A stretch of DNA of 64,000 nucleotides, from NCBI GenBank assembly GCA_951406725.2, contig OX597827.1:19344001-19408000 (forward strand), in the 5' to 3' direction. Position 1 is the stretch's first letter. Every line of letters begins with the position of its first letter. The notes beneath the pieces were generated by a model. The model made no database searches. It was not told the DNA's origin and saw nothing but the letters and a program-made list of their open reading frames with translations. Positions 25,543-64,000 of the stretch are shown here, in pieces. Position numbers and translations under genes: made by a program. The stretch is from Octopus vulgaris (Eukaryota).

Positions 25543-26800
25543 CATCATCATCATTGTTTGACCGTGGTCGAGACAATGGAATTTACCATGCTACGCCAGA
25601 CTTCACGGTCCATCATGGCATTACGGAGGTCCTATTGCTGGATGCCTGTATCCCTGGAGATTACAACAGGGTAGGAGAGTGTGCGCCCTCTGGTATTGCG
25701 AGTAGATGGCTTCCAGAGGAGAGGAGTAGAAATTACTTCTTTTTCAGCTCTACTACAATGTCCAGCAAACTGGACTCTCCTACCTTTCACAAGAGATGAC
25801 ACAGGTGGTAGTTTCCCATATATTTGCATTTTGGTTGAATGGCGCTTCCACGAGAGATTTTGAGCTCTCATAAGGAGGCGAGTGTAAGTTCCATCCAACC
25901 GCCTCTCAAGCTTCTTTGATAAGGTCCAGGTTTCTGAGCCATATAGTAGAATTGGTTCGACTGTGGCTTTGAATATTTCAAGTTTGAAGTCTCTACTTAG
26001 ATTTGATGACCAGATCTTATGCATGTCATTACAGGCTGACCAGGCCATACCCTTTCTAGTTAGAAAGTCTTTTCCAGATGATGATATGTATGACCCAAGA
26101 TATTTATAATCAGAAATTAAGGGCACATTGTTGAGAGTATGGATGATGCAATCACTGTTGGACAGGCACTTGTTTATGTATTCAGTTTTGGCCTCATTGA
26201 GGTAAAGACCTACACAATTTGAGGCTTGTTCAAGAGATTGTAAAAGAGACTGGGCATTGGAGAGAGAATCACTGATAAGAGTGATGTCGTCAGCAAAGTC
26301 AGTGTCTGTCAAGTACTCAGCTGGGTGTCTGGAACTTCTTCTTGGTTTTATTTCAAAGCCCTTGCCAGAGATGGTATCAACTGACATACGTAGCACATAA
26401 TCAACAACAATGATGAAAAGAAATGGGGCGAGTGTGTCTCCCTGCAGTATTCCGGCTTTGATTGAGAAAGATGATGTTTCTCCATCAGGGGTTAAGATGG
26501 TTGAAGACGTATCTGTGTAGAGGACCTTGATGGCAGAAATGATTTTGTCTGGTATCCCATAGAGCTTAAGGATTTCAAACATCTTGTACCTATCTACAGA
26601 ATCGAACGATTAAATGCTTTTGATTCTTCAATAAGTCTGCGTAGGCATAGTATCTGGCTCAGCGTTGAGCGCCCATGTCTGATTCCATTTTGGTTCTTTC
26701 GGAGCAAAGGTTCAACAAAAAGGACAAGACGATTTAGGATCAGTTTGTTGTACAGTTTTGCAGCAATTGACATTAGAGATATACCCCTGTAGTTGGTGAC
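25543..26800 (-). mobile_element. 5'-truncated RTE/RTE-X-type LINE with 7-bp TSD
   Basis: NYRGISLMSIAAKLYNK; GILQGDTLAPFLFIIVVD; DFADDI; YKYLGS; LLYGSETWTL. (GAT)n tail; GAGTAAT duplicated at 25536-25542 and 26801-26807. Confidence 0.92.
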
Positions 26801-28664: not shown

Positions 28665-30400
28665 CAAGAAAAGACTGATTGAGTTCCTTGAAGACAACGA
28701 CCTGCTCTCTGACACCCAACATGGCTTTCGCCCGGGAAGGAGCTGTCTTACACAGCTTCTGTGACATTATGACTGGGTACTGTCATTTAATTAATGAACT
28801 GCGCAAAGGTTGATGTGGTATACCTCGACTTTGTGAAGGCATTTGACAAGGTCGACCATGGAATGATATGCCACAAAATACGGGGACTCAGCATCACTGG
28901 TAAAGTCGGAGAATGGCTGCATGATTTCCTGAAGGACAGGAGCCAAACTGTAGCAGCCAACGGAGCTCTCTCCACAGAGACACCAATAGTGAGTGGAGTG
29001 CCCCAGGGCACTATGCTGGGGCCACTGCTTTTCATGGTAGCCCTATCAGATCTGCCATCAGTGACAGAGGCAGCCAAGCTTACCAGCTGTACCGACGGCA
29101 CAAAAGTCACAGTCAGCAAGGCAACCTCTGATGCTACGCTCTTACAGAAAGATCTAGATGCCATCTATACATGGGCTGAGGATAACAACATGCAATTTAA
29201 CCCTTTAGTGTTCACATTATTCTACCCAAATTAATGCTTTTTCATCCACATTGTTTTGAACTAATCAGGCATTATCTTGTAGCTTTGAGATTTTGATGAG
29301 GTAGCTGTTAATTTTTAAAACGATATTGTAGGGTTGGTGTGAAAGACCAGATCTGACCAGTTTGAACATAAAACAGGCAGAATACTTTTGGCCGGATATG
29401 GCTGGTCTAAATGCTAAAGGGTTAATGCAAGTAAATTCCAGGCCGGCCTCTACCATTTAAGCACTGCTCAGGGATCACGACACCAGTACACTAGACCAAG
29501 TGGAGCAACGATCCCAGAATCAAATACGGTGCATGATCTTGGAATAGAAATGAGCAACAATGCCTCATTTCACACGCATATCAACAAAATGGTAGCAGTA
29601 TCCAGAAGACTGGCCGGTTGGATTCTGAGAACCTTCTAGATGAGGGATCAAGAAACTATGATGACACTAAGGAAGTCATTTATCCTCAGCCGACTGGACT
29701 ACTGCTCTCGGCTATGGTCACCTTATACTACAAGGACAATAGCAGAGCTTGAAGCAGTCCAATGACATTTCACCAAGAAAATTGCATCAATGGAACGACT
29801 GAGCTACTGGGACAGGTTGAAAGAGCTGCGACTCTATTCCCTGGAACGAAGGCGTGAGAGGCATGCACTGATATATATATATTTCTTTACTACCCACAAG
29901 GGGCTAAACACAGAGGGGACAAACAAGGACAGACAAAGGGATTAAGTCGATTCCATCGAACCCAGTGAGTAACTGGTACTTAATTTATCGACCCCAAAAG
30001 GATGAAAGTGATATATATATGGAAGGTACCGGAAGGACTGGTACCAAACTTTGGAATAAAGAGCTATACCAGACCACAAACAGGACATCACTGTGCTGAC
30101 TGCTTCATCTCGGGTAAGGACGATGTACTGCAATAGCTTGGGTTTCAAGGGACCACAGCTGTTTAACTGTTTGCTGAAGCATCTGAGGAGCCTCCATGGA
30201 GTGGGTGTAGATGTTTTCAAACAGCCGAGATCCCGGATGAGCCAATATCTAGTCAGGAAACTCAAAAGAGAGCAGTAACATCAAACTCTATCCTTCACCA
30301 AAAGCCGCTCCGACAAAGGTGGAGAGTGGAAAGATGATCACAATGGCGGTGCTCCTGCATGGCCACAGTCATTGGACTGAAACACATAAAAAAAAATAAA
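28665..30400 (+). mobile_element. 5'-truncated CR1-group LINE (RT to 3' end) with nested insertions
   Basis: QHGFRPGRSC; VYLDFVKAFDKVDH; SGVPQGTMLGPLLF; LDYCSRLWSP; NSLGFKGPQLFNCL. Contains stops and is interrupted by a MITE (29201-29421) and a SINE-D fragment (about 29883-30009). Ends GGCGGTGCTCCTGCATGGCCACAGTC...A-rich. Confidence 0.9.
29201..29421. mobile_element. piggyBac-type MITE
   Basis: TTAA TSD (29197-29200 / 29422-29425) and termini CCCTTTAG...CTAAAGGG. It splits the CR1 codons MQFN|ASKF. Diverged copies at about 14172-14395, 5065-5676 and 15940-16082. Confidence 0.9.
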
Positions 30401-32879: not shown

Positions 32880-33827
32880 TCATTCGATTAATCCCGTAAC
32901 TTTTTCGCTGAAGTTCCACAACTTTACAGCAAGTTGTTTATCCAGAGCCTGATTTGCCCATTCGTCTCTCTGGCATTCACTGTAGTAGCAACCAGATTGG
33001 TCTTTCGTCTCTTCACTAACAGAACAATATACAACAGTTTGACAACCTTCTTGGCAATTCTTGAAAAGTGATTTGAAAGCAGAGACCCTTTGTATCAGAG
33101 GAAATGAATTCAAAATGTTCCTACTTATATCTGTGTTTACTATTCCTGGGTGAACATAGTATATGTTGATATTAGTGTCTGACATTCGATTGCTAAATTC
33201 ACGGCAAAATAAAGCACATGCTAACTTACTGTCACAGTAGGCACCGTGTTGATGGAAAAACTCCGGTTTATTCATGTTGTCAAAATCGATTTTCCCGTAT
33301 TTGTAAATAACACTCCCGACAAAAACGACGCGGGGTGAATCAGACTTCTTTAATAACTCCAGTAGAAGATGTGTCAAAAGGAAGGGACCAAAATAATTGA
33401 CGCCCATATGCATTTCCAGGCCATCTTCTGTCTCAGCATACGGGTGGAAATAAACACCCGCATTGTTTATAAGGATATCCAAAGAGGTGATATGTTGCTT
33501 AATATTCTTGCAGAATGTCCGAATGGAATCGAAGCTTGAGAGATCAAGTTTTTCAACAAGTACAACACCTGAACCTAATTCGCTTAATTGTTCTGCAGCC
33601 GATTTTGCCTTATTTAAGTCCCGACATGCGAGGATCACTCGGGCCCCTCGTAGTAATAAATTACGGGCTGTTTCGAATCCGATTCCACAGTTACCTCCAG
33701 TAATAATAACTGTTTTGCCTTCCAGTTTAACAGGGCTGGTACAGGTGGCTCCTTTCATATAATAGCGAATCGACAAAGGTAAAATGATTATTATGGCTAC
33801 AACTGCCAAAATTGTCAACAACATCAT
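32880..33827 (-). CDS. RDH14: Retinol dehydrogenase (classical SDR, RDH11-14 family, closest to RDH14), 315 aa, intronless CDS
   Basis: N-terminal hydrophobic anchor; TGGNCGIG Rossmann motif; ACR (NADP(H) preference); LINNAG; catalytic Ser (VGSV) and YCDSK (YxxxK); HPG; KLW..SE C-terminus. SVIYKYGKIDFDNMN resembles the RDH14 segment as I recall it. Orthology is less certain than family assignment. Confidence 0.93.
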   Translation of the reverse strand: MMLLTILAVVAIIIILPLSIRYYMKGATCTSPVKLEGKTVIITGGNCGIGFETARNLLLRGARVILACRDLNKAKSAAEQLSELGSGVVLVEKLDLSSFDSIRTFCKNIKQHITSLDILINNAGVYFHPYAETEDGLEMHMGVNYFGPFLLTHLLLELLKKSDSPRVVFVGSVIYKYGKIDFDNMNKPEFFHQHGAYCDSKLACALFCREFSNRMSDTNINIYYVHPGIVNTDISRNILNSFPLIQRVSAFKSLFKNCQEGCQTVVYCSVSEETKDQSGCYYSECQRDEWANQALDKQLAVKLWNFSEKVTGLIE

Positions 33828-34254
33828 TAATATACTGAGATTTCGACAGAAACCAGGACTAACACAGCTTTTTCACAGCACAACTTTCACAGTTCTGACG
33901 TTTATAGTACAAAGGTGCGTCAGAACTACATATCATCCCACATGTAATTCGACAAGGTCGGCGCATCGTAAGCTCACGTGCCTAATGATTAAGTTCATCT
34001 TTATAACGAACAAGACAAATTATATTTTCATTTCTATTTTTCTGAGTCACGGCTGGTAAGACAAGCATTTCTTTTCAGCAGCCTGAGCATAAAAACTGCA
34101 GGCGATGTTTGAGTTTAACGTACCATTTCAGTTTCTTGTAAGCTTTTTTGACAGCAGTCGGAGACTTTTTTTTTTTGTTAAAGGTGTACTGCTGATCACT
34201 TGTTTGTGAGTAGGGACAATTCAAGTTTGTTGTCGTTGTTATTATTTAACATAG

Positions 34255-35665
34255 AGACCTCACTCTCCAGTGGGCCCTCTTCGCAACCCTCACACGAACC
34301 AGATCACTGACGACCCCAAGGAATGCGCAGAACTCATTGCCAAGTGCTATGCAAACATATTCACTGTCGAAAGTCAAAATGTACCATCTTCACCATCACT
34401 AACAGCAAACTCCATAACAACTATGGAATTTACACCTGAAATGCTGCGACGTCACCTTCAAAATAAGCGCAACTATGCCTCCCCTGGTCTCGATGGAGTT
34501 ACATACCTGCTTCTCAAACGTGGCAGGCACTTCCTTTTACACCAGCTTTCTATTTTCTTCCAGTACTGTCTCAACAATGGTGCTACTCCGGAGCAGTGGA
34601 AAACTGCCAGTGTCATTCCTCTGTTCAAAAAGGGTGACCGCACATCACCTGTCAACTATCGCCCAGTCAGTCTCACTAGCTGTATTGCAAAACTGATGGA
34701 ATCGTGTGTCAGAGAAACACTCTGGAACTTCTGGAGCTCTCACAGTCTCATCCGACCCTCACAATATGGATTTGTCCCTAACTCCAGCTGCAGTGACCAG
34801 CTTGTCGAGTTCCTTGAGGACATTACTCAGATCACTGACAGTGGCTCATGGGTGGATGTTGTCTACCTTGACTTTGCTAAGGCTTTCAACTCTGTGCCAC
34901 ACAAAAGGCTTATGGTGAAACTCTCTGCAATGGGTGTGGGGGATGACCTTTTTAACTGGTTGAAATCCTTCATCCTCAGCCGAAAGGAGGTAGTCACAGT
35001 TCTAGGACAGCACTCTACACCATATGAGATGTCATCGGGTGTACCACAGGGATCTGTCCTTGGTCCCCTCCTGTTTGTGGCATACATTAATGACATAGAT
35101 GCCAATTTAAAGAATGCCACAGTATTGAAATATGCAGACGACATCAAGCTGTACCTTGAAATCAAGAGGACTGATCCTGATGTCTACAACTCTTTCCTGC
35201 AATCAGACCTAGACACAATGCAGCAATGGATCACAGACTGGCAACTGAAACTGGCTGTGGACAAGTGTACCACCATGCATTTTGGGAGAAAAAACTCTGC
35301 GTCCACATACTCCCTTCACAACACTGATATCAAGAAATCCTCTTGCGAGCGTGACCTAGGCATCACTGTCAGCAGTGATTTGCGTTGGACAAAGCATATC
35401 TCTAAAATTGTCAAGAAGGCCGAGGGTGTCTTGGCATCACTCAGCAAGACTTTTGTTAGCCGCTCTCCAGCCATCTATTTAAAACTGTATACAGCTATGG
35501 TACGACCACACTTGGAATTCGCATCATCAGTTTGGAATCCCTATCTTGCTCAGAACATTGACCTCCTGGAATCTGTCCAGAGACGTGCAACCAAACGCAT
35601 ACCCTCCATCAGACACCTACCATATTCTGAGCGCCTTGTTTCCCTGGGCATGGATTCACTGAAGC
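34255..35665 (+). mobile_element. Young 5'-truncated CR1-group LINE with an uninterrupted RT reading frame
   Basis: ORF 34270-35793 contains SPGLDG, NYRPVSLTS, QYGF, YLDFAKAFNSV, SGVPQGSVLGPLLF, KYADDIKL, ERDLG and VRPHLEFASSVWNP. The last ~40 aa are read-through into a different element. Confidence 0.95.
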
Positions 35666-35732
35666 TTGATTCGTTAGCTACTGCACGCATTTTTTTTCTC
35701 TCCTTCTTTCCGTGTTTTTCTCTCTCTGTGTA

Positions 35733-35770
35733 TCTTTCTGTTGAAGAGCGTAGGCTCGAAACGTTAAAGA
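35733..35770 (+). ncRNA. Hammerhead-like motif with core variant CUGUUGA, in a Penelope-like terminal fragment (about 35667-35870)
   Basis: UCUUU-CUGUUGA-A-GAGC(GUAG)GCUC-GAA-ACGU-U-AAAGA. Same architecture as 56034-56068, but A6 is replaced by U. Confidence 0.55.
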
Positions 35771-35867
35771 CTTGTTTTATTTATATTTCCTGAGCGCCAT
35801 ACTAATACAATTGTTCGTTTGTTTTCCACCTGCCTTCGTCTTTTGTTTATTTTCATAAAGCTTCCCG

Positions 35868-39914: not shown

Positions 39915-40386
39915 TATATATATATAATAGTAAAAGCAAAATTCTGTCTGTCCATCTGGGACCCTTGTATCTCAGTTTACATTTTGCTCGACCATAGACA
40001 CATTGTATTTTGGAGGGATCAGGATAATCCCAGGATTGAAAAATCTGCCCTACATTTGGTTCTGGAACATCCAGCACTAGGATCTGATTTAAAAGCATTT
40101 GGGTTGCTATTTCGAGCAGGTAAAGCTACCATAAGAGATTTCAGGGTCATCGTCTTACCAAGAGAGGCAAACAAGAGTTACCTCCCTTAGACTAAAGTTA
40201 TACAAAGGAATTTAGCGGTTCTTTTATCTTTTTCAGTCATCCGACTGTGACCATGCTGGGGCACTGCCTTGAAGAATTTTGATCGGAAAAAGATGACACC
40301 TTTTCTTTCTTTTTTATGCTTGGTACTTTTTTTTATAGGCCTCTTTTACCGAACCGTTAGGTCACATGAACGTAAACACACCAATA

Positions 40387-40797
40387 CCTATTTCTTTATT
40401 ACCCACAAGGGGCTAAACATAGAGGAGACAAACAAGGACAAAGGTATTAAGTCGATTACATCGACCTCAGTGCGTAACTGGTACTTATTTAATTGACCCC
40501 GAAAGGATGAAAGGCAAAGTCGACCTCGGCGGAATTTGAACTCACAACGTAACGACAGACGAAATACCTATTTCTTTACTACCCACAAGGAGCTAAACAT
40601 AGAGGGGACAAACAAGGACAGACAAAGGTATTAAGTCGATTACATCGATCCCAGTGCGTAACTGGTACTTAATTTATCGACCCCGAAAGGATGAAAGGCA
40701 AAGTCGACCTCGGCGGAATTTGAACTCAGAACGTAACGGCAGACGAAATACCGCTAAGCATTTTGCCCGGGGTGCTAACGTTTCTGCCAGCTTGCCT
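40387..40797 (-). mobile_element. SINE family D with tandemly duplicated 3' body
   Basis: Two copies of TTTCTTTA(T/C)TACCCACAAGG...GTCGACCTCGGCGGAATTTGAACTC...GACGAAATACC; the head is at about 40750-40797. Confidence 0.85.
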
Positions 40798-47342: not shown

Positions 47343-47613
47343 AAACCTAATTATGATAGTTCGACTTGCTAGAAATAGCATTTAAATCGTCCTAATATAG
47401 CAATGCAGATTACGATACACAAAAAGGCAGGATGGTCATGGCTGGAACACTTTGATCATAGGTTTTACTCAATCAAACCTAATCATGATCGTTCGACTTG
47501 CTAGAAATAGCATTTAAATCGTCCTAATATAGCAATGCAGATTACGATACACAAAAAGGCAGGATGGTCATGGCTGGAACACTTTGATCATAGGTTTACT
47601 CAATCAAACCTAA
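47343..47613. repeat. Near-perfect tandem duplication, about 132 bp x2
   Basis: AAACCTAAT(T/C)ATGAT(A/C)GTTCGACTTGCTAGAAATAGC...TACTCAATC at 47343 and 47475. Confidence 0.95.
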
Positions 47614-47924: not shown

Positions 47925-48075
47925 TCTTTCTCCGTCACTCTCTCTCTCTCACACTCCTTTCTCCGTCACTCTCTCTCACACTCCTTTCTCCGTCACTCTC
48001 TCTCTCACACTCCTTTCTCCGTCACTCTCTCTCACACTCCTTTCTCCGTCACTCTCTCACACACTCCTTTCTCAC
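47925..48075. repeat. Pyrimidine-rich 27-29-bp minisatellite (about 5 copies) upstream of the candidate first exon
   Basis: Unit CTCCTTTCTCCGTCACTCTCT(CT)CACA. Confidence 0.9.
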
Positions 48076-49575: not shown

Positions 49576-50307
49576 GTAGGACGCACCCATGTTATTATTA
49601 TGACACAGATCTATGTATAAATGCGAATGCGTACAGAGATGTGTGTTTATGCGCTGGTTTCATGTTTTATACGTGTGTAATGTGTGTGTGTGTGTATAAT
49701 AAATTGTGATTATGTATTTGACTTGATATGTTTATAAACCGTCTCCAATTAGCTCCACACCTTTCTGAGTATCTGCATCGCTAATTAATAATTGTTCAAT
49801 GGTGATTTGCCCGGTGTTTTTCACTCAGCTAGATCGATGGCTATATATATATGAATGTCCCTACGTCTATATCTGTTATTGTAGTAAATATATTCTTGTA
49901 TTTTTCGGTAGACAATCGACTTAGAGGTGTGTCTGATTTTATATTTACTGTTGGTGCTTCTCTTTGTGTGTTAACACAAATTTGGAGAATGTGTAGAATA
50001 TTTTATAATATAGGAAACAGTGACTGAATAAACCGATTTCGTGTGTGTGTGTGCGGGCTATGTCTAATATCTATTATAAATTTTTGACAGTGACTTCGAA
50101 GTCACGCGTGTGTGTGTGTTAACGTTAACAGAATTTTACTCAGTATTTTTTTTTTAGTAGAAAACATTAAACGTTTTCATACAAAGAAAATTGTACAAAC
50201 GTATATATAATATATTATAATATATATATATATATGTATGTATGTGTGTGTTGATATATGTGTATATTATGCTTGTATATATATATGTAACTAGTACCGA
50301 ATGATCG

Positions 50308-50364
<57 letters not shown>

Positions 50365-51269
50365 AGAGAGAGAGAGAGAGCAATAAGAAAATGGAGGGAT
50401 CAATAGGTGGTTCGTCAACTTTTAGACATTATATTATGTTAACTTATTTATTTATTTACTAAAATGACAATTACAAGAATATACATACATGTATAACATA
50501 TTATGCTTTACGTATAAAATATATTAATGTATAAAGATACCAGTAATTATTAAAATATAACATACAGGAATATAAATTGGGAAAAATGCAATTAGCTTTC
50601 GGAAAACACCCACCAAAATTTAACTCGGTTACACATCAGCTGACCAAATAACTTTTTAACCAAGTTGGGTTTTTTTATGACACCTAAACAAAAAAACCCT
50701 AGTACCTGAAACTGACATTCCTAACTAGACACACCTAACCACAAAGTTTTACACACACACACATACTCTCTCTCTTTACTTGTTTCAGTCATTTGACTGC
50801 GGCCATGCTGGAGCATCGCCTTTAGTCGAGCAACTCGACCCCGGGACTTATTCTTTGTAAGCCCAGTACTTATTCTATCGGTCTCTTTTTGCCGAACCGC
50901 TAAGCGACGGCGACATAAACACACCAGCATCGGTTGTCAAGCGATGTTGGATGGGACAAACACAGACACACAAACATACACGCACACACACACACACATA
51001 TATACACATATATATATATATATATACGACGGGCTTCTTTCAGTTTCCGTCTACCAAATCCACTCACAAGGCTTTGGTCGGCCCGAGGCTATAGTAGAAG
51101 ACACTTGCCCAAGATGCCACGCAGTGGGATTGAACCCGGAACCATGTGGTTGGTAAACAAGCTACTTACCACACAGCCACTCCTGCGCCATAACTTGCAT
51201 TCAAGAAGCTTTGAAACTTTTTCAAGGCTGACATCTATTTCAAAGAAGTACAAAACTCTTATTCTCCTT

Positions 51270-51595
51270 CAAAAGTAGGATCTTCTGGCTTCAATGAACC
51301 TATTGAAGTGTTCCAGCTTCTTTCTGAGGGCCCCACGGAAGTCATCCAAAACGAAGGTGTTCAGGACCCTTATCACAACCTCCTTTATCTCCCCCTTTAG
51401 TTTGGGAAACAACCAAAACTTACAGGTGCAAGGGCTGGACTGTAATGATGATGAGGGACAGTTTTGATGCCCCATCTTTGTTGAGCAGTTGGTTACCAAG
51501 ATGGAAATGTGCACTGGTGCATTGTCCTGGTACAGGTGTTCTTCTGGTCTTTTGTGATGAAATCTCTTCATACACTCTTTCAAATCCTCGCTCAA
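51270..51595 (-). pseudogene. Tc1/mariner transposase C-terminal fragment
   Basis: QDNAPVH...FWLFPKLKG matches mariner DNAxxH and YSPDLAPxDFxLFPxLK; degenerate and frameshifted. Confidence 0.75.
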
Positions 51596-53588
51596 ATGGT
51601 GCTCAGATGGAGCTGTTAGCGCTCAACTGGCACAGGTGCCAGTCATCGAATATGGTTCAATTTCGATTTCACTTTCCCCAACATATCTTCGAAAGCAAAG
51701 TTTAGTGTCCAATGAAGGGAGTTTGGCATGGGTGCCAGTCGTCAAATTTGGTTCGATTTTGAATTCAATTTCGATTTCACTTGCCTCAACAGGTCTTTGC
51801 AAGCAGAGTTTTGTGTCCAAAGAAAGAAAGGTATGCATAAGTGGGCTGGCTACATCCCTGGTAAAGGCTACGGGTTATGGTCTCACATGCCCTGCTGGGT
51901 CTTCTCACGCACAGCATACTTCCAAAGGTCTCAGAAATATAAATACAATAAGAATAATAATATCAGGACATAACAACAGGTGTCTTTCGACTGGGGATGA
52001 ATTGAATTCAGCTGCCATGTGTGGAAATGAAGCCTTACGGCAGAGATACAAAACTTTCATGAACACAGGGAAGAATATCGTCGCAGCTCATTTATCAACG
52101 TGCAAGTGGCCAAGCATTTCACAGACACTTGTACCCTTAATGTAGTTCTTGGGGAGATTCAGCGTGACACAGAGTGTGACAAGGCTGGCCCTTTGAAATA
52201 CAGGTACAACAGTATCAAGAAGAAAGAGTGAGAGAAAGTTGTGGTGAAAGAGTACAGCAGTATGAACCAGACATTATAAAGTTAGACTTTTCTGTTTATA
52301 TTTTCTCTGATGAACTGGAATACCTATGATTCGAATTTCATCAAAATTGCAGATGAGGGTTATTTCCCTCTTTACACACCCTAAAAAAATTGTAATCATG
52401 ACACATATATCCCATACTACTGATTTTTATGCATAGATTCCAAAATTCCTGTCTTATAGAACCTGTTAAAAGGATTTTGCTCCTGAAAAATGGAGGTCAT
52501 GGAGCTCTAAAATGGGGGTGGGTGTCTTAATGTCACCCAGAAAAGTTGAATTGTTGAGAATCTTTTTAACTTGGGTCTTATAATCTATTGTTTGAATGTC
52601 TTTGAAATAGGAAATATATGTATGTTCACTGGGTTTGTAAAAGGGAGCAAAGCTACAGGAAATGGAAAGATGAATGATCACAATAAGCAGTCAGTTACCC
52701 TACCCTAGTCGTTACCACTCCCAATGTAGGATTCCTCACCATACAGGTGACAGGCACAGCTGTAAGATGCATTACAGATCTATAGCAATTGGAAGGGCGT
52801 GACCCAACTGAAATAAACATTAACAACTGTGTGACGTGAGGGCTAATGAGAAATGAAAGTGTCACTTCTGGAATTTGCAAATGACTACTATACTGATACG
52901 TAACTGGACAGAATAAATTTACAATCTATAAATGTCTTTGAATAACCAGTCACTCACCTGGGAAGGCCTTGAAATCAATGTTACCATCTGGGGACTCTGT
53001 GACCCAGTGATAATAAAAAGACTGAAAGGAGGTCTGCAACCAAATAACTTTACTCAACTCTTTGCAACTGAATCAGTGGAGGCAAAGATGCGTCTCATTT
53101 ACTTGACAGTTTATGCACCACCCTGCAGAAAACACAACTCTTCTGTTTTAGCCTCAGACCAACCAAAGCCTTGTCAGTGGGTTTTGTAGACAGAAACTGA
53201 AAGAAATCAATCATATATATATATGTATGTAGGTATGTAAGTGGTAATACTAAGTGATCATTGACACTTATTACGACTTGATGTGGTTAGCCATAACCTG
53301 GAATTCACTTGAGAGCCAACCTAGCACCTGCCTGAATAATTTATCCCTGTACACTCATGTTTATATATATATATATATGTGTGTTTGTGTGTGTGCGTGT
53401 GTCAATATAGTGAGTATATACAAATGTATGACAGATATACAAGTGCATCTTTTCCTTGACATATGGACTCTTAGACAACTAAGTTATGATATATATATAT
53501 ATCTATCTATCTATATATATACATATATATATAGATAGATAGATAGATATGCATCAAATGAAATAAAAAACAGAACACAAAGGATGTC

Positions 53589-53680
53589 GCGGTACACGTG
53601 TTTCAAGTTTTATACAACAACCTATTCTTACATCAATGTATAATCGACATAACAGGTGGTTTAAAGCTCTCTTCAGCCGC
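53589..53680 (-). ncRNA. Type-I hammerhead ribozyme motif with extended loop 2
   Basis: Minus strand: GCGG-CUGAAGA-GAGCUUUA(about 49 nt)UAAAACUU-GAA-ACACGUGU-A-CCGC. Intact core, palindromic helix III ACACGUGU, cleavage triplet GUA. Confidence 0.75.
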
Positions 53681-53879
53681 ATGCAATTGCTATACCCTCT
53701 CACCTCTGCTACTACGTGCATATACAGGTGCTTACACTTATCAAGTATTCACCCTGAATTCATATAGGTAGGTTGGTAGGTAGGCAGGTAGGCAGGCAGA
53801 GAGAAAGAGAGAGATCTGTCTCTGATCTCACATGCTAGTCATAGAATACACTGTCAGAAGGAGGAGGATGGCATTCCTA

Positions 53880-55810
53880 AAAGAAACTAGCTTGCTGACA
53901 AACCTGTAATAATGGCTTCTATTCAATGAAGGGCTGCCTCACATAGCTACTACACCATTTTTACTGGGTTCTGAAAAACAGATCAGCCAATCAAATGTGT
54001 ATATGGATATATATCTGGACTTTGCCAAAACCTTTGATGATGTTGATCATAAGTCACAAACTGCATGGCCTTGATATCCTTGGAAAACCAAGGGGGTGAC
54101 TGCACAACTTTTTAAAAGGCAGAAGTCAGGGAGCCACGGCCAATAGTGCCCTTTCTCTGTGAAGAGACATCAATTTTCAGTGGAGTCCCCCAGGGAATTG
54201 TACTGGAACTGCCTGCTACTGTTGCAGCGGAGGCACATGGCCTAGTGGTTAGAGCAGCAGACTGACGGTCGAGGGATCGCAGGTTCGAATCTCAGACCGG
54301 GCGATGTGTGTGTTTATGAGCGAAACACCTAAGCTCCATGCGGCTCCGGCAGAAGGTAATGGCAAAACTTCTGCTGATTCTTTCGCTACAACTTTCTCTC
54401 ACTCTTTCCTCCTGCATCTTGCAGCTCACCTGCGATGGACCAGCGTCCCGTCCAGGTGGGGAACCTATATGCCAAGAAACCGGGAAACCGGCCCTTATGA
54501 GCCAGGCATGGCTCGAGAAGGAACAAACAACAACAAAAAAACAAAACAACAAGCTACTGTTGCAGTGGTTCTTACAGACATGTGTGCAGTCACACAGTCA
54601 GCTACTCTCACCAGCTTTGTTGACAAAACAAAACTCTCACAAGCTGTTAAGAACCATAATGGCACCATAAAACTAAAGAATGTCCTAAATGCAGTATACA
54701 AGTAGGCTGGTGGAAAATTTACAACATTGAACTGAATGCTGTTCAATAAAAATTTTCAAGCACTCTGATATCAGCCCATGAACAGATAGCAATCTGGATA
54801 CACAGAACCAAAGTTGACACATAACCTAGGAGCCCACGTAAGTAATGATGCATCATTCATCATCATCATCGTTTAGCGTCCGCTTTCCATGCTAGCATGG
54901 GTTGGATGGTTCAACTGGGGTCTGGGAAGCCAGAAGGCTGCACCAGGCCTAGTCTGATCTGGCAATGTGTCTACAGCTGGATGCCCTTCCTAACGCCAAC
55001 CACTCCGTGAGTGTAGTGGGTGTTTTTTACGTGCCATTGGCACGGAGGCCAGGCGAGGCTGGCAACGGCCACGATCGGATGGTGCTTTTTACATGCCACC
55101 GGCATGGAGGCTAGTCGGGGCGGCGCTGGCAACGGCCACTTTCGGATGGTTCTCTTACATGGCACTGGTATCACAGCTACAATTTCCATTGATGTTGATC
55201 AATTTTGATTTTGATTCCACTGTGCATATTACTGAGATGGCAACACTGCAGGCAAGTGACTGGCTGGTTGTGAGATCATGTAGAACAAGGAAAAGGGAAA
55301 GTATGCTACTACCTATGGAGAATATTTGTTCTCAGTAGCCTGGATTGCTGTTCCCCACTATGGTCACTACAAAGTTCGAGTTAATAGCAGGACTAGAGGC
55401 AATCCAATGCCACTACACCAGGAAGGTTAACTCATTGCAACAGATGAGCTGTTAGGAGAGGCTGAAAGTGCTGACTCTACTTTCTAGGGATAAGACCTGA
55501 AAGATATGCAGTGTGTTTGTGTGTGTGTCTAGTTCTCAAATTTCGGAATTGAAAGTTATACCAACCACTGGAGTTCATGTCACTGCAGAGTACCGAAGAC
55601 CCTATCCTCTCCATCTTGAGTTAGGACATAATATTGTAACAGCTTAGATTTTTAAGGGCCCGCAACTTTTCGACACTTTTGCCAGACCACTTCAGGGATC
55701 TGTGAAGAGCAGATAAGGATGTATTCAAGAAATATTTGGACAAATTTCTAAAGTACCAGATGAACTTGCATCACCACAGGAAAAAAAAGAAAGAGTAGCT
55801 TTGGCCAACT
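53880..55810 (+). mobile_element. Old degenerate CR1-group LINE remnant with nested SINE C and RTE tail
   Basis: IYLDFAKTFDDVDH; SGVPQGIVL; ...CNSLDF.GP. Many stops; same family as 28665-30400. Confidence 0.75.
54228..54552 (+). mobile_element. SINE family C with 13-bp TSD
   Basis: GCTACTGTTGCAG at 54215-54227 and 54553-54565. Confidence 0.93.
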
Positions 55811-56033
55811 CGTTACTTCATCAGAAACGGTTCTGGAGCGAGCTGGGAAATGAGTGTTAAGTAGAAACCGATCACATTAAAGGTTGTACCCCAGCGTAGC
55901 CATAGAAACCAGTAAAAGTAAGTATATATTTGTGTGTGAAGGTAATCCAAACATGAAAACACAAAGAGAAAACACAACAACGCGAGGACGTGGAACAAGT
56001 ATAGTGTTATTGGACGCTCAGGAAATAAGGAGG

Positions 56034-56068
56034 GTTTAACGTTTCGAGCGGAGCTCTTCGTCAGAAAC
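56034..56068 (-). ncRNA. Minimal type-I hammerhead ribozyme motif in a Penelope-like terminal fragment (about 55925-56145)
   Basis: Minus strand: GUUU-CUGACGA-A-GAGC(UCC)GCUC-GAA-ACGU-U-AAAC. Helix III is the palindrome ACGU; cleavage triplet GUU. Confidence 0.75.
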
Positions 56069-56310
56069 ATAGGAAAAGGTAAGATCCAAAGAAGGGAAGA
56101 CAGAGGGAAAAAAATCGCCAACAGTACACACATGGTCACATTTTATATATATATGTGTGTGTGTGTGTATGTGTGCATATATATGTATTCCTTTGTTCTT
56201 TTATACATTTCAGCCATAAGGCTGTGGCTATGCTGGGGCACCATGCATATTATATATGTGTGTATATACATGTGTGTGTATCGGAGGTGACAGATCTCAT
56301 CTAAGTATGT

Positions 56311-56605
56311 TGTTTGTTCCTTCTCGAGCCATGCTTAGCTCATAAGGGCCAGTTTCTTGGCGTATAGGTTCCCCACCTGGACGGGACACCGGTCCTTCGC
56401 AGGTGAGCTGCAGAATGCAGGAGGAAAGAGTGAGAGAAAGTTGTGGTGAAAAAGTCAGCAGAAGTTCACCATTACCTTCTGCCGGAGCTGCGTGGAGCTT
56501 AGGTGTTTCGCTCATAAACATACACATTGCCTGGTCTGAGATTTGAACCCGCGATCCCTTGACCGCGAGTTCGCTGCTCTAACCACTCGGCCATGTGCCT
56601 CCACA
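56311..56605 (-). mobile_element. SINE family C with 12-bp TSD
   Basis: ATCTAAGTATGT at 56299-56310 and 56606-56617. Confidence 0.93.
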
Positions 56606-57509
56606 ATCTAAGTATGTGGCAGGCTGTGAATGCGCATCATTCACAAGGCCTAACAAGGTCAAAATACATCTGGTGTTCTCACTAGCTGCTACAGCTGCTG
56701 GGATGATTTTCATCTCCTAATATATATTGTTTTCAAACACAGCATGTCCATAAGAGATATCTTCAAATGAATGTCACTATAAATTTCCTTTTAGCGATGT
56801 ATTACCATTATGATATACAGATCAAATGGATATATATATATATCATCATCAGTATCATTGTTTGACTTCCACTTTCCATGCTGGCATGGGTTGGACGGTT
56901 TGACTGAGGACTGGCCAGCCAGCAGGCTGCACCAGGCTCCAATCTGATCGAGCAAGTTTTCTACATCTGGATGCCCTTCTTAATGCCAACCACTCCATGA
57001 GTGTAGTGGGTGGTGTTTTCATGCCACCAGCATGGAAGCCCGTCAGATGGAACTGGCATCAACCACATTTGAGTGGTGCTTTATACGTGCCATTGGCATG
57101 GGGAGCCAGTCAGGTGGCATGGCACCAACACACGCTCAGATGGTGCTTATTACATACCACAGGTGCCAATCAGGCAGTACTGACCACGACTACAATTTTC
57201 ACTTCACTTGACTCAACGGGTCTTCTCAAGCACATCACATTTCCTGATGATTGAAGGGTACTTTTAAATGGGTTGGTTGTGTGACACTGGCATCGGCCAC
57301 GGCTACAATCTCACCTTATTTGCCGGGTCTTCTCAATTACAACATATCTCCAAAGGTCTCAGTCTCATGTCATTGCTTCTGTGAGGCCCAACTTTTGAAG
57401 GTCATGCTTCACCACCTCATCCCATGTCTTCCTGGGTCTACATCTTCCACAGGTTCCTTCCACTGTTGGGTGTAACTCTTCTTTACACAGGCTATATATA
57501 TATATTTAT

Positions 57510-57725
57510 AGGGCAGCGAGCTGGCAGAAATGTTAGCACGCTGTATTTCGTTTGCCGTTACATTCTGAGTTCAAATTCCGCCGAGGTCGAATTTGCCTTT
57601 CATCCTTTCGGGGTCAATAAATTAAGTACCAGTTACGCACTGTGGTCAATGTAATCAACTTAATCCCTTTGTCTGTCCTTGTTGGTCCCTTCTGTGTTTA
57701 GCCCCTTGTGGGTAGTAAAGAAATA
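57510..57725 (+). mobile_element. SINE family D
   Basis: GGCAGCGAGCTGGCAGAAATGTTAGC...GAGTTCAAATTCCG...GCCTTTCATCCTTTCGGGGTC...TTTAGCCCCTTGTGGGTAGTAAAGAAAT. Confidence 0.85.
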
Positions 57726-57980
57726 TATATATATATATATATTTATAGTCCGCAGATGAAATCTAGAGATTCTCAGTACAGAAGACACTTGGAGTGATTA
57801 ATGCTCAAAAGATTCAAACTTTGACTCCAAAGTCTTTATGGGGGATCAATTCCACAGGGTAAAGAGTTGCTATAAGAGGGATCAAGTTGAGTAGATACAG
57901 AGGCAGTTATGCAGATAAACAAATTAGATATATTAAAGATAATAGTTTGGGCATGAAACAGAAAATATGTATACATGCAT

Positions 57981-58320
57981 AGGCGTAGGAGTGGCTGTGT
58001 GGTAAGTAGCTTGTTTACCAACCACATGGTTCCGGGTTCAGTCCCACTGCGTGGCACCTTGGGCAATTGTCTTCTACTATAGCCTCGGGCCGACCAAAGC
58101 CTTGTGAGTGGATTTGGTAGACGAAAAACTGAAAGAAGCACATCGTATATATGTATATTTATATATATGTGTGTGTGCGTGTATGTTTGTATGTCTGTGT
58201 TTGTCCCCCCCCCCCCCAACATCGCTTGACAACCGATGCTGGTGTGTTTATGTCCCTGTCTCCAAAGCCTTGTGAGTGGATTTGGTAGACGGAAACTGAA
58301 AGGAGCCCGTCGTATATATG

Positions 58321-58368
<48 letters not shown>

Positions 58369-58595
58369 ATGTATGTGTGTGTATATGTTTGTGTGTCCGT
58401 GGTTGTACCCCCAACATCGCTTGACAACCGATGCTGGTGTGTTTACATCCCCGTAATTTAGTGGTTCGGCAAAAGATACTGATAGAATAAGTACTAGGCT
58501 TACAAAGAATAAGTCCTGTGGTCGATTTGCTCGACTAAAGGCGGTGCTCCAGCATGGCCACAGTCATATGACTGAAACAAGTAAAAAGTTTAAAG
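57981..58595 (+). mobile_element. SINE family B with internal duplication
   Basis: The CCAAAGCCTTGTGAGTGGATTTGG...CATCGCTTGACAACCGATGCTGG block occurs twice. Confidence 0.88.
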
Positions 58596-58859
58596 AAAAA
58601 AAAATGCAAAATGCGAGAAAGCAGAAGATGGAAATTTCAAATGATAAATATTTAAGTCGAGACTTACAGATATTTATATCAACATATTTCTGTGTTGTTT
58701 GTATTCTGTGTAGGTTGGATCTATTAATATAAATATCTATATATTTATACTCAAATATTTATTGTCTGAAAGTCTTCATCTTTTGCTTTCTCTCATTTTG
58801 CACGTATACATATATATTTATTTTCTGTTTCATGCCAAAACTATTATTTTATATCACAC

Positions 58860-59813
58860 TCCAGGGAGTGAAACAAGAAGTAGTTGATGGCTTCCGCTAC
58901 CCAGGAAACCAAGTTAGTAATGGAGATGGATACTCAGAGAGTATTACCACTGGAATAAGAATAGCCTGGGCAAAGTTTAGAAAGCTTCTACCCCCTACTG
59001 GCAACAAAGAGCCTCTCGCTCAGAGTCAAAGATAGATTGTACGATGCATGTGTGCGAACTGCCACGCTTCACAGTAGTGAAACATGGGCCGTGACTGCGG
59101 AGGACATGCGTAGGCTTGAGAGAAATGAAGCTAGCAGAGTGTAAGGATCCTGAGAGAAATGTTGGACATAAGAAGCATTGGATGTGGTGTGCAAGAAAGA
59201 TGTTCACGCTGGTATGGTCATGTACTACGGATGGATGAGGAGAGATGTGTGAAGAAGTGCCACTCCCAAACAGTTGAAGGAATCCGGAGTAGAGGTTGAC
59301 CCAGGAAGACATGGGATGAGGTGGTCAAGTATGACTTTCGAACGTTGGGTCTCTCAGAGGCAATGACGAAAGACCGAGACCTCTGGAGATATGCTGTGAC
59401 TGCAAAGACTCGGCATTTAAAGCGTGTTCACTGCTGTATCCTACACCAGTTTCGCATAACCAGCCCCAGCCCATTCAAAAGTACCTTGGATCGTAGGGCG
59501 AACTGCTGTGCTTGAGGAGACCTATTGAGTCAAGTACATCAACATCAAAATGAAAATCAAATGGAAATTGTAGTTGTGATACCCATGCCAGTGACACGTA
59601 AAATGCATCATCCGAACGTGGCCGTTCTGTGCTGATGGCACGTAAAAAGCACCCACTACACTCACTAAGTGGTTGGTGTTAGAAGGGCATCCAGCTGTAG
59701 AAACACCACCAGATCAGACTGGAGCCTGGTGCAGCTTCCTAGCTTTCCAGACCCCAGTCGAACCGTCCAACCCATGCTAGCATGGAAAACAGACGTTAAA
59801 AGATGATGATGAA
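58860..59813 (+). mobile_element. 5'-truncated RTE-clade LINE (RT end plus family-A 3' UTR)
   Basis: EVVDGFRY...IRIAWAKFRKLL...RLYDACVRT...SETWAVTAEDMRRLERNEA, then the UTR ending CCATGCTAGCATGG...(GAT)n. Confidence 0.9.
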
Positions 59814-59930
59814 TTTGTTTATCCACTTAATTGCCTCTCTATATAAACACACACAAACACATATACATTTGAATATACTTATAAGTATACGTACTTACAT
59901 GATACATGTATATCTCTTTGAATAGTAAAG

Positions 59931-62900
59931 CTCATTATAGCATAAAAGGAGCGGTTGATGGGTTAACCGAGCACAAAAGCACATTATAACATAAAGGGAG
60001 CTGTTGATGGGTTAACCAAGCACAAAAGCACATTATAACATAAAGGGAGCTGTTGATGGGTTAACCAAGCACAAAAGCACATTATAACATAAAGGGAGCT
60101 GTTGATGGGTTAACCAAGCACAAAAGCACATTATAACATAAAGGGAGCTGTTGATGGGTTAACCAAGCACAAAAGCACATTATAACATAAAGGGAGCTGT
60201 TGATGGGTTAACCAAGCACAAAAGCACATTATAACATAAAGGGAGCTGTTGATGGGTTAACCAAGCACAAAAGCACATTATAACATAAAGGGAGCTGTTG
60301 ATGGGTTAACCAAGCACAAAAGCACATTATAACATAAAGGGAGCTGTTGATGGGTTAACCAAGCACAAAAGCACATTATAACATAAAGGGAGCTGTTGAT
60401 GGGTTAACCGAGTACAAAAGCACATTATAACATAAAGGGAGCTGTTGATGGGTTAACCAAGCACAAAAGCACATTATAACATAAAGGGAGCTGTTGATGG
60501 GTTAACCGAGCACAAAAGCACATTATAACATAAAGGGAGCTGTTGATGGGTTAACCAAGCACAAAAGCACATTATAACATAAAGGGAGCTGTTGATGGGT
60601 TAACCAGCACAAAAGCACATTATAACAAAGGGAGCTGTTGATGGGTTAACCGAGCACAAAAGCACATTATAACATAAAGGGAGCTGTTGATGGGTTAACC
60701 AAGCACAAAAGCACATTATAACATAAAGGGAGCTGTTGATGGGTTAACCAAGCACAAAAGCACATTATAACATAAAGGGAGCTGTTGATGGGTTAACCAA
60801 GCACAAAAGCACATTATAACATAAAGGGAGCTGTTGATGGGTTAACCAAGCACAAAAGCACATTATAACATAAAGGGAGCTGTTGATGGGTTAACCAAGC
60901 ACAAAAACACATTATAACATAAAGGGAGCTGTTGATGGGTTAACCGAGCACAAAAGCACATTATAACATAAAGGGAGCTGTTGATGGGTTAACCAAGCAC
61001 AAAAGCACATTATAACATAAAGGGAGCTGTTGATGGGTTAACCGAGCACAAAAACACATTATAACATAAAGGGAGCTGTTGATGGGTTAACCGAGCACAA
61101 AAGCACATTATAACATAAAGGGAGCTGTTGATGGGTTAACCAAGCACAAAAGCACATTATAACATAAAGGGAGCTGTTGATGGGTTAACCAAGCACAAAA
61201 GCACATTATAACATAAAGGGAGCTGTTGATGGGTTAACCAAGCACAAAAGCACATTATAACATAAAGGGAGCTGTTGATGGGTTAACCAAGCACAAAAGC
61301 ACATTATAACATAAAGGGAGCTGTTGATGGGTTAACCAAGCACAAAAGCACATTATAACATAAAGGGAGCTGTTGATGGGTTAACCAAGCACAAAAAACA
61401 CATTATAACATAAAGGGAGCTGTTGATGGGTTAACCAAGCACAAAAGCACATTATAACATAAAGGGAGCTGTTGATGGGTTAACCAAGCACAAAAGCACA
61501 TTATAACATAAAGGGAGCTGTTGATGGGTTAACCAAGCACAAAAGCACATTATAACATAAAGGGAGCTGTTGATGGGTTAACCAAGCACAAAAGCACATT
61601 ATAACATAAAGGGAGCTGTTGATGGGTTAACCAAGCACAAAAACACATTATAACATAAAGGGAGCTGTTGATGGGTTAACCAAGCACAAAAGCACATTAT
61701 AACATAAAGGGAGCTGTTGATGGGTTAACCAAGCACAAAAGCACATTATAACATAAAGGGAGCTGTTGATGGGTTAACCAAGCACAAAAGCACATTATAA
61801 CATAAAGGGAGCTGTTGATGGGTTAACCAAGCACAAAAGCACATTATAACATAAAGGGAGCTGTTGATGGGTTAACCAAGCACAAAAGCACATTATAACA
61901 TAAAGGGAGCTGTTGATGGGTTAACCAAGCACAAAAGCACATTATAACATAAAGGGAGCTGTTGATGGGTTAACCAAGCACAAAAACACATTATAACATA
62001 AAGGGAGCTGTTGATGGGTTAACCAAGCACAAAAGCACATTATAACATAAAGGGAGCTGTTGATGGGTTACCCAAGCACAAAAGCACATTATAACATAAA
62101 GGGAGCTGTTGATGGGTTAACCAAGCACAAAAGCACATTATAACATAAAGGGAGCTGTTGATGGGTTAACCAAGCACAAAAGCACATTATAACATAAAGG
62201 GAGCTGTTGATGGGTTAACCAAGCACAAAAACACATTATAACATAAAGGGAGCTGTTGATGGGTTAACCAAGCACAAAAGCACATTATAACATAAAGGGA
62301 GCTGTTGATGGGTTAACCGAGCACAAAAGCACATTATAACATAAAGGGAGCTGTTGATGGGTTAACCAAGCACAAAAGCACATTATAACATAAAGGGAGC
62401 TGTTGATTGGTTAACCGAGTACAAAAACACATTATAACATAAAGGGAGCTGTTCATGGGTTAACCAAGTACAAAAGCACATAACATAAAGGGAGCTGTTC
62501 ATGGGTTAACTGAGTACAAAAGCACATTATAACATAAAGGGAGCTGTTGATGGGTTAACCAAGCACAAAAACACATTATAACATAAAGGGAGCTGTTGAT
62601 GGGTTAACCAAGCACAAAAGCACATTATAACATAAAGGGAGCTGTTGATGGGTTAACCAAGCACAAAAGCACATTATAACATAAAGGGAGATGTTGATGG
62701 GTTAACCAAGCACAAAAGCACATTATAACATAAAGGGAGCTGTTGATGGGTTAACCAAGTACAAAAACACATTATAACATAAAGGGAGCTGTTGATGGGT
62801 TAACCGAGCACAAAAGCACATTATAACACAAAGGGAGCTGTTCATGGGTTAATTGAGTACAAAAGCACATTATAACATAAAGGGAGCTGTTGATAGGTTA

Positions 62901-63983
62901 ACCGAGCACAAAAGCACATTATAACACAAAGGGAGCTGTTCATGGGTTAACTGAGTACAAAAACACATTATAACATAAAGGGAGCTGTTGATGGGTTAAC
63001 CAAGTACAAAAACACATTATAACATAAAGGGAGCTGTTGATGGGTTAACCGAGTACAAAAGCAGATTAAAACATAAAGGGAGCTGTGTATGGGTTAACCG
63101 AGCACAAAAGCACATTATAACATAAAGGGAGCTGTTGATGGGTTAACCAAGCACAAAAACACATTATAACATAAAGGGAGCTGTTGATGGGTTAACCAAG
63201 CACAAAAGCACATTATAACATAAAGGGAGCTGTTGATGGGTTAACCAAGCACAAAAGCACATTATAACATAAAGGGAGCTGTTGATGGGTTAACCAAGCA
63301 CAAAAGCACATTATAACACAAAGGGAGCTGTTCATGGGTTAATTGAGTACAAAAGCACATTATAACATAAAGGGAGCTGTTGATAGGTTAACCGAGCACA
63401 AAAGCACATTATAACACAAAGGGAGCTGTTCATGGGTTAACTGAGTACAAAAACACATTATAACATAAAGGGAGCTGTTGATGGGTTAACCAAGCACAAA
63501 AGCAGATTATAACATAAAGGGAGCTGTTGATGGGTTAACCGAGTACAAAAGCAGATTATAACATAAAGGGAGCTGTTGATGGGTTAACCGAGTACAAAAG
63601 CAGATTATAACATAAAGGGAGCTGTTGATGGGTTAACCGAGTACAAAAGCAGATTATAACATAAAGGGAGCTGTGTATGGGTTAACCGAGTACAAAAGCA
63701 CATTATAACATAAAGGGAGCTGTTGATGGGTTAACCGAGTAGAAAAGCACATTATAACATAAAGGGAGCTGTTGATGGGTTAACCGAGCACAAAAGCACA
63801 TTATAACATAAAGGGAGCTGTTGATGGGTTAACCGAGTACAAAAGCACATTATAACATAAAGGGAGGTGTTGATGGGTTAACCGAGCACAAAAACACATT
63901 ATAACATGGGAGCTGTTGATGGGTTAACCGAGCACAAAAGCACATGGTTAACCCATGAACAGCTCCTTTTATGTTATAATGAG
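59931..63983. repeat. 49-bp tandem satellite (about 82 units) bounded by 38-bp terminal inverted repeats
   Basis: Unit CACATTATAACATAAAGGGAGCTGTTGATGGGTTAACCAAGCACAAAAG. The left end 59931-59968 and right end 63946-63983 are inverted copies (35/38 identical). Confidence 0.97.
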
Positions 63984-64000
63984 AGTGAAGAGGCAAAAGT

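Follow-up and report, generated by a model that had tools for sequence, protein, structure and literature searches.

Among the described systems, the Xmix and Xstir repeats of Xenopus (T2-MITE, Kolobok) come closest to the locus reported here. As they are described, part of a short element with inverted repeats was amplified and the array stays between the ends of the element; for Xstir, the terminal inverted repeat (TIR) is given as the source region in a review table (PMC6004289; PMC12628747; PMC9659126). A variable tandem array inside inverted ends has also been described for miDNA4 of Xenopus tropicalis and for DTC84 of Donax trunculus. Short direct-repeat microhomologies were invoked for the growth of the miDNA4 array (PMC12628747; PMC9659126), and each DTC84 unit is reported to carry a palindrome of 12 nt (PMC3879986). 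Tandem repeats derived from TIR sequence were reported for two Drosophila elements, Tetris and Galileo, and the latter, a foldback-like member of the P superfamily, is described with TSDs that can be 7 bp long (PMC4168063). In the Haber-Louis model, a minisatellite is born at flanking direct repeats of 5-10 bp, by slippage or unequal exchange of the segment that they bound (PMC3389668; PMC6947457). For octopus, a published repeat catalogue includes 80 satellite and 74 MITE consensus families, which it lists without sequences (PMC13282606).

Here, we describe an array of 49-bp units that ends in a single inverted copy of the 38-bp arm with which each unit begins, found in a stretch of 64,000 nucleotides (the window). 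We propose that this array, which is likely to be single-locus and length-variable, grew from a solitary hairpin of ~92 bp. The hairpin would have been left by an orphan insertion of a non-autonomous DNA transposon, and it is probably immobile today; the probability that we give to this reading is about 0.55. The locus resembles each of the above systems in some respect. Its array lies between inverted ends, as in Xmix/Xstir, miDNA4, and DTC84; every unit contains a palindrome, GGTTAACC, as in DTC84; the repeated sequence is TIR-like, as in Galileo and Tetris; and the flanking direct repeat has the length of a Galileo TSD. The unit is bounded by direct repeats (8/9 identical, extending to 11/16), and the array ends with a partial unit, CACAT, as in a birth of the Haber-Louis type. 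The features of the locus are as follows.

59920-59935 (+): left microhomology, comprising the flank end and the first 5 bases of unit 1; 11/16 identical to the spacer end 63930-63945
59924-59930 (+): left 7-bp direct repeat AGTAAAG, candidate TSD; 6/7 match with 63984-63990, unchanged in an X1 contig of single-copy depth
59931-59968 (+): left 38-bp arm (TIR-like), the start of unit 1; 3/38 mismatches against the inverted right arm
59931-63940 (+): 82 tandem units of ~49 bp, each an arm with 11 bp of spacer, from repeat finding and unit parsing
62817-63453 (+): multi-unit duplication with an offset of 10 units; units 60-62 (62817-62963) equal units 70-72 (63307-63453)
63930-63945 (+): 16-bp spacer that separates the final forward arm from the inverted one and forms the hairpin loop; junction also in X1 and X4 contigs
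63946-63983 (-): single inverted 38-bp arm (TIR-like), the array terminus; arm and right flank present in X1, X2, and X4
63984-63990 (+): right 7-bp direct repeat AGTGAAG, candidate TSD; the flank runs on for ~200 bp in contigs of single-copy depth from three runs

Tandem Repeats Finder reported a period of 49 with 82.2 copies and 96% matches at 59927-63945. Parsing resolved 82 units of 49 bp at 59931-63940, half of which (41/82) are identical to the consensus, followed by CACAT (63941-63945) and the inverted arm, and the whole element today measures 4,053 bp. The terminal inverted copy that the preliminary description had read from the sequence was thus found again by parsing. The same picture was given by a 14-base motif of the arm, which with at most 2 mismatches matched the window 80 times, against 1.85 expected; 79 of these matches lie forward within the array and one lies in reverse at its end. 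With 82 forward units against one inverted arm, the array is one-sided, and the mirrored arrays of foldback-type elements were not encountered. Between the inverted arm and unit 1, 3/38 sites differ (35/38 identical, 92%), and the outward similarity ends at CTC. An arm of 39 bp with a loop of 14 bp is an equally good cut, and compared with the commonest unit (A39) the inverted match gains one base.

The last unit and the inverted arm form a predicted hairpin of -29.5 kcal/mol (z -10.7), and none of 200 shuffled sequences folded as well. Within its loop (63930-63945), the sequence AGCACA is present twice as a direct repeat, and the palindrome GGTTAACC adjoins the loop. No open reading frame of at least 120 aa overlaps the array, so the element is non-coding. 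Rfam gave 0/14 matches at the gathering threshold; the best, to mir-1179 (32.6 vs 80 bits), is a generic hairpin match. The term satellite was used initially; at 4 kb, with a 49-bp unit and one locus, the array is a minisatellite and not a satellite in the megabase sense; the short direct repeats that bound the unit agree with this class.

The variants within the array distinguish its ends from its interior. Two variants, T2 (the CTC start) and A17 (AAAAGGAG), are confined to unit 1 and the right arm and are absent from the remaining 81 units, just as the earlier reading of the two ends had it. G at position 17 marks the internal units, and both ends retain A. Internal units start with CAC, except units 65 and 74-77, which start with CAG, and G10 and G23 are private to the arm of unit 1. 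The mean number of differences from the consensus is 0.39 in units 2-50 and 2.59 in units 51-82. The interior has been homogenised and the ends are older, since T2 and A17 are common to both of them. The distribution of divergence among units, together with the identity of units 60-62 and 70-72, points to recent expansion on the left side and to multi-unit unequal exchange. A further variant, C27, is common to the right arm and six internal units (52, 53, 60, 62, 70, and 72; 62428-63453). This sharing may reflect the ancestral state, conversion, or parallel mutation. Gene conversion from the right arm was considered and C27 was rejected as evidence for it, because A17 is found in no internal unit and parallel change is not rare (~28% by our own estimate, with some 16 substitution types).

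The 7-bp flanks, AGTAAAG and AGTGAAG, match at 6/7 sites, as had been noticed, and they lie exactly at the arm boundaries. Among 200,000 random pairs drawn from 50000-59930, a match as good occurred in 0.26% for a fixed 7-mer and in 1.1% for any length from 6 to 10 with at most 1 mismatch; both values become somewhat higher once the post-hoc choice of the boundary is considered. No empty site was seen in the contigs of three runs (X1, X2, and X4), and the 7-bp repeat is for this reason a candidate TSD only. The microhomology between the left flank and the spacer end is real and longer than first described: 59920-59935 and 63930-63945 agree at 11/16 sites, for which the chance is 0.9% with the arm start fixed; the core of this match is 8/9.

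The end of the array was compared with public contigs. A search of public runs with 59400-60030 gave 24 listed runs, with 20 holders and 11 studies; those of organisms C, D, and E had shares of 0.23-0.30 and were given no weight. Four of the runs were aligned to 59812-60030 at 85% likeness, three of them as contigs (X1, X2, and X4) and one as raw reads (X22, see below); X1 and X2 are labelled as organism A and X4 as organism B, and they come from three studies. All three (3/3), which fall under two species labels, contain the inverted arm next to the same right flank, and the strand switch lies within one record in two of them (X1 and X4), the latter under the second label. The preliminary description had called for a check of the inversion in long reads; here it is supported by contigs. 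X1 and X4 each contain one 273-bp contig, in which the last 30 (X1) or 29 (X4) forward letters are followed by the opposite-strand arm and then by ~200 letters of flank, beginning as the window does at 63982-64000. These forward sides are just below the 31 letters of our bridging rule, and the strand change is absent from the joint table; short forward sides are expected, because the contig runs into the repeat there. In X2, the arm and the right flank were found, and the forward piece was absent among the matches listed. X1 is possibly the source sample of the window itself. An assembly or read fold-back artefact is very unlikely, because X4 and X2 give independent support and the arm carries the variants of unit 1, not those of unit 82. 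The terminal inversion is real.

Only X1 yielded the left junction, with no differences over 59877-59983; in X2 and X4, where it must also exist, it was not seen. In X4, a 358-bp contig of organism B (record 14) carries 30 letters of the left flank (59881-59915) with two gaps, followed by unlike sequence; it may be an orthologous left flank that was rearranged or an AT-rich match that arose by chance. Within a unit, 14 foreign letters precede 59965 in one X2 contig.

Relatives of the arm were searched for in several ways. In the window, a motif scan, blastn, and nhmmer revealed no other copies, and the ends gave chance hits only (best nhmmer E 6.6). Among the 30 contigs listed (5 from X1, 21 from X2, and 4 from X4), none joins the outer edge of the arm to a foreign flank at identity of at least 85%, and none contains an unamplified 92-bp copy. 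This search detected 4 of the 6 expected array ends and covered X2 to ~80%; 15 pieces lie outside the listing, 2 loose ends were dropped at repeats, and its range is copies of at least 85% identity. Five loose ends were listed, of which three are the right flank of the locus, one is the foreign stretch within a unit in X2, and one is the gapped left-flank match in X4. The contigs that carry flank have depths of 11.8 and 13.5 (X1), 62.8 (X2), and 44.6 (X4), and because this is single-copy depth, the flanks are not themselves repeated. The exact arm pattern had no match in viral, metagenome, and prokaryote sequences, collections hardly expected to contain an animal repeat. No read matched in the raw data of a further run, X22 (1,934 million letters, with the species label of X1), in which an 82-unit array should have yielded ~19 reads, and ten dispersed copies of 92 bp ~7, assuming 2.8 Gb; the presence of the organism in this run was not shown, and the result was not counted.

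The array is thus likely to be at a single locus. The preliminary description had named the occurrence of the TIR at one locus only as the outcome that would speak against its model, and this is so far what was found, within the reach of the contig search. Its wording "MITE family" and "mobilisable unit" is unsupported. The MITE label fails because a MITE belongs by definition to a dispersed family of high copy number, and neither the window nor the 30 contigs showed a second copy; nothing indicates mobility of the whole array. In the 30 contigs, the outer edge of the arm meets only the flanks of the locus.

The number of units appears to vary between animals. Contigs made of units have a depth of 60 in X1, 3800 in X2, and 2008 in X4, and the ratio of unit depth to junction depth is ~5, ~60, and ~47, respectively, compared to 82 units in the window; contig depth is not equal to copy number, and these unit numbers are rough. 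The roughly tenfold spread among animals suggests that the locus is a VNTR. Unit totals of such size fit one array, and a second one is therefore unnecessary.

The window as a whole is animal-type repetitive DNA with microsatellites, and its SINE-like repeats presumably resemble those of octopods. Domains were scanned in 12 of its 33 open reading frames. An uninterrupted stop-to-stop frame of 330 codons at 32880-33872 (-) matches Pfam adh_short (E 1.5e-35, profile positions 1-190 of 195) and is predicted to encode an intronless short-chain dehydrogenase domain, from either a single-exon gene or a retrocopy. LINE-like reverse-transcriptase frames (RVT_1) were found at 8883-9749 (-), 25632-26609 (-), and 34255-35793 (+). 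An element of ~230 bp at 29197-29425, which we take to be piggyBac-MITE-like, has inverted TTAA-CCCTTTAG ends, and a similar left end lies at 14172. Other short tandem duplications are located at 40383-40752 (period 184), 47343-47613 (132), 15450-15545 (26), and 47926-48073 (27/56).

The origin that we propose would proceed in four steps. A TIR-spacer-TIR piece of ~92 bp would have inserted and left a 7-bp duplication. Provided that the arms were identical at the start, this would have happened ~12 My ago (2-38 My); the estimate presumes a host of the octopus group and no conversion between the arms, and it is based on 3 differences over 38 paired sites with a JC distance of 0.09 taken as 25 My (PMC13282606). 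Next, at the microhomology, which is observed, slippage or unequal exchange would have duplicated the left arm together with the spacer. A crossover in the shared CAT would be the reason why later units start with CAC and not CTC, and the CAG of units 65 and 74-77 would be a later change. This step fits the Haber-Louis model, because the microhomology (11/16) is as the model requires. G17 would then have arisen in the amplifying lineage, with unit 1 at the edge keeping the old bases along with private ones; homogenisation of the interior and the duplication of a 10-unit block, both of which are observed, would belong to the same stage. Finally, copy number would have diverged about tenfold among animals, as roughly indicated by contig depth. 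No function is needed to account for the array. Of the initial proposal that an ancestral MITE of ~92 bp was amplified, the duplication of the left arm and spacer through microhomology is kept, since it fits both the sequence and the published model, and the membership in a MITE family is given up.

The debatable issue is how the hairpin came into being. Insertion by a TIR transposase is favoured because the 7-bp repeat lies exactly at both arm ends, and a template switch is favoured because no relatives were found. The latter explanation, which we regard as possible and hold only tentatively, assumes that the hairpin was made in place by a short-range switch of the four-point type 1-4-3-2 or 3-2-1-4, in which 38-39 bases were copied backwards; the left arm and spacer would then have expanded, and the 7-bp flank match would be a coincidence. 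It accounts for the absence of a second copy, and its fold-back point adjoins the palindrome GGTTAACC. Such events are reported to make up 31% of the high-confidence human-chimp events (PMC5453318), and more than 6,000 suitable hairpins, defined by stems of 30-55 bp, are reported to have originated by such switches in primates (bioRxiv 10.1101/2023.04.19.537475). However, a template switch does not predict a direct repeat placed exactly at both arm ends (chance 0.3-1.1%), and the pre-switch state was seen in none of the runs, which also yielded no outgroup orthologue. The insertion reading, which we prefer, has to face the failure to find a relative, unusual for a transposon end this old, the imperfection of the 7-bp repeat, and the absence of an empty allele among the X1, X2, and X4 contigs. 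To our knowledge, no superfamily has a signature that matches the CTC termini.

Other explanations fit the data less well. Both arms are present with 92% identity, and MITEs that carry repeats are known (Xmix/Xstir, miDNA4, and DTC84), as would suit a member of a dispersed family with ends that still function and a 4-kb array that is cut and pasted whole. We consider this unlikely, given that the outer edge of the arm met a foreign flank in 0/30 contigs, that the flanks are at single-copy depth, that the arm of unit 1 has two private substitutions, and that none of the 12 scanned frames (of 33 in the window) belongs to a transposase family; the same right junction under two species labels suggests an old and stationary insertion. 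It is similarly a long shot that the ends represent an undescribed low-copy cut-and-paste class, with CTC-starting 38-bp TIRs and 7-bp TSDs, and that the cassette still transposes whole; if this were true, ~80 near-copies of a transposase-binding end would constitute both a mobile satellite seed and a transposase sink. The ends of piggyBac elements read TTAA-CCY, and the inner arm ends, GGG-TTAA and TTAA-CCC, are like those of the TTAA-CCCT-ended element at 29197-29425. The arms could accordingly be seen as outward-facing ends of piggyBac-like elements (right end, TTAA, short spacer, TTAA, left end), with the dimer junction amplified. This is very doubtful, as no partner end lies upstream, where 0/4 TTAACCC sites (1-59930) extend into arm-like sequence, the DNA outside the two arms is single-copy, and the flanks have no common inverted similarity beyond CTC. 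The position of the inversion, 17 bases from the window end and beside a palindrome and a homogeneous array, is one at which an artefact at the end of a collapsed repeat might be suspected, yet the probability of this is negligible: the junction and flank recur in contigs of other studies and under a second species label, and the variants of the arm are of the unit 1 type, unlike those of the neighbouring unit 82.

If the insertion that we favour is set against the classes introduced above, the agreement is partial in each case. With respect to MITEs, the inferred ancestor of ~92 bp is short (<600 bp) and non-coding, and its 38-bp arms are foldable (hairpin z -10.7), but dispersed high copy was not observed in the window and 30 contigs at likeness of at least 85%. 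Xmix is described as a family of high copy number that targets TTAA and ends in AGGRR (PMC6004289); the octopus locus, in contrast, occupies one site, has a 7-bp candidate TSD, AGT(A/G)AAG, in place of the TTAA target of T2-MITE/Kolobok elements and CTCATT in place of their terminus, and its unit spans the whole left arm from the first bases. miDNA4 and DTC84 are also described as dispersed high-copy families, the repeats of which are internal cores distinct from the ends, and for DTC84 at most five cores are reported (PMC3879986). The TSDs of Galileo follow GTANTAC and are 7-8 bp long, so that the length fits and the sequence does not; its longest copy is described with repeats in both long TIRs (PMC4168063), whereas the array reported here is one-sided, with the 7-mer AGT(A/G)AAG and no transposase or family known. 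The P superfamily is further marked by a THAP-domain DDE transposase; the element itself has no coding part, and such a domain was absent from the 12 frames scanned among the 33 of the window. Unlike in the Haber-Louis cases, the duplicated segment is half of a hairpin, and because of this the second arm survives as an ancestral marker.

The locus adds a clean case to a route already known for the origin of tandem repeats, and no new mechanism has to be assumed. It is an unusually legible minisatellite birth, in which the two ancestral ends are preserved together with the microhomology, a variant that spread through the interior, and what appear to be alleles of ~5 to 82 units. It can be used as a teaching case, possibly as a VNTR marker, and as a site for deciding between insertion and template switch. 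For the locus to be of strong interest to specialists, transposition of the array, or a new class of elements defined by its ends, would have to be demonstrated. In the way it works the locus parallels Xmix/Xstir, but it does not belong to that group. What sets it apart from Xmix/Xstir, miDNA4, DTC84, Tetris, and Galileo is that it is single-locus and one-sided and that the arm itself makes up its repeat.
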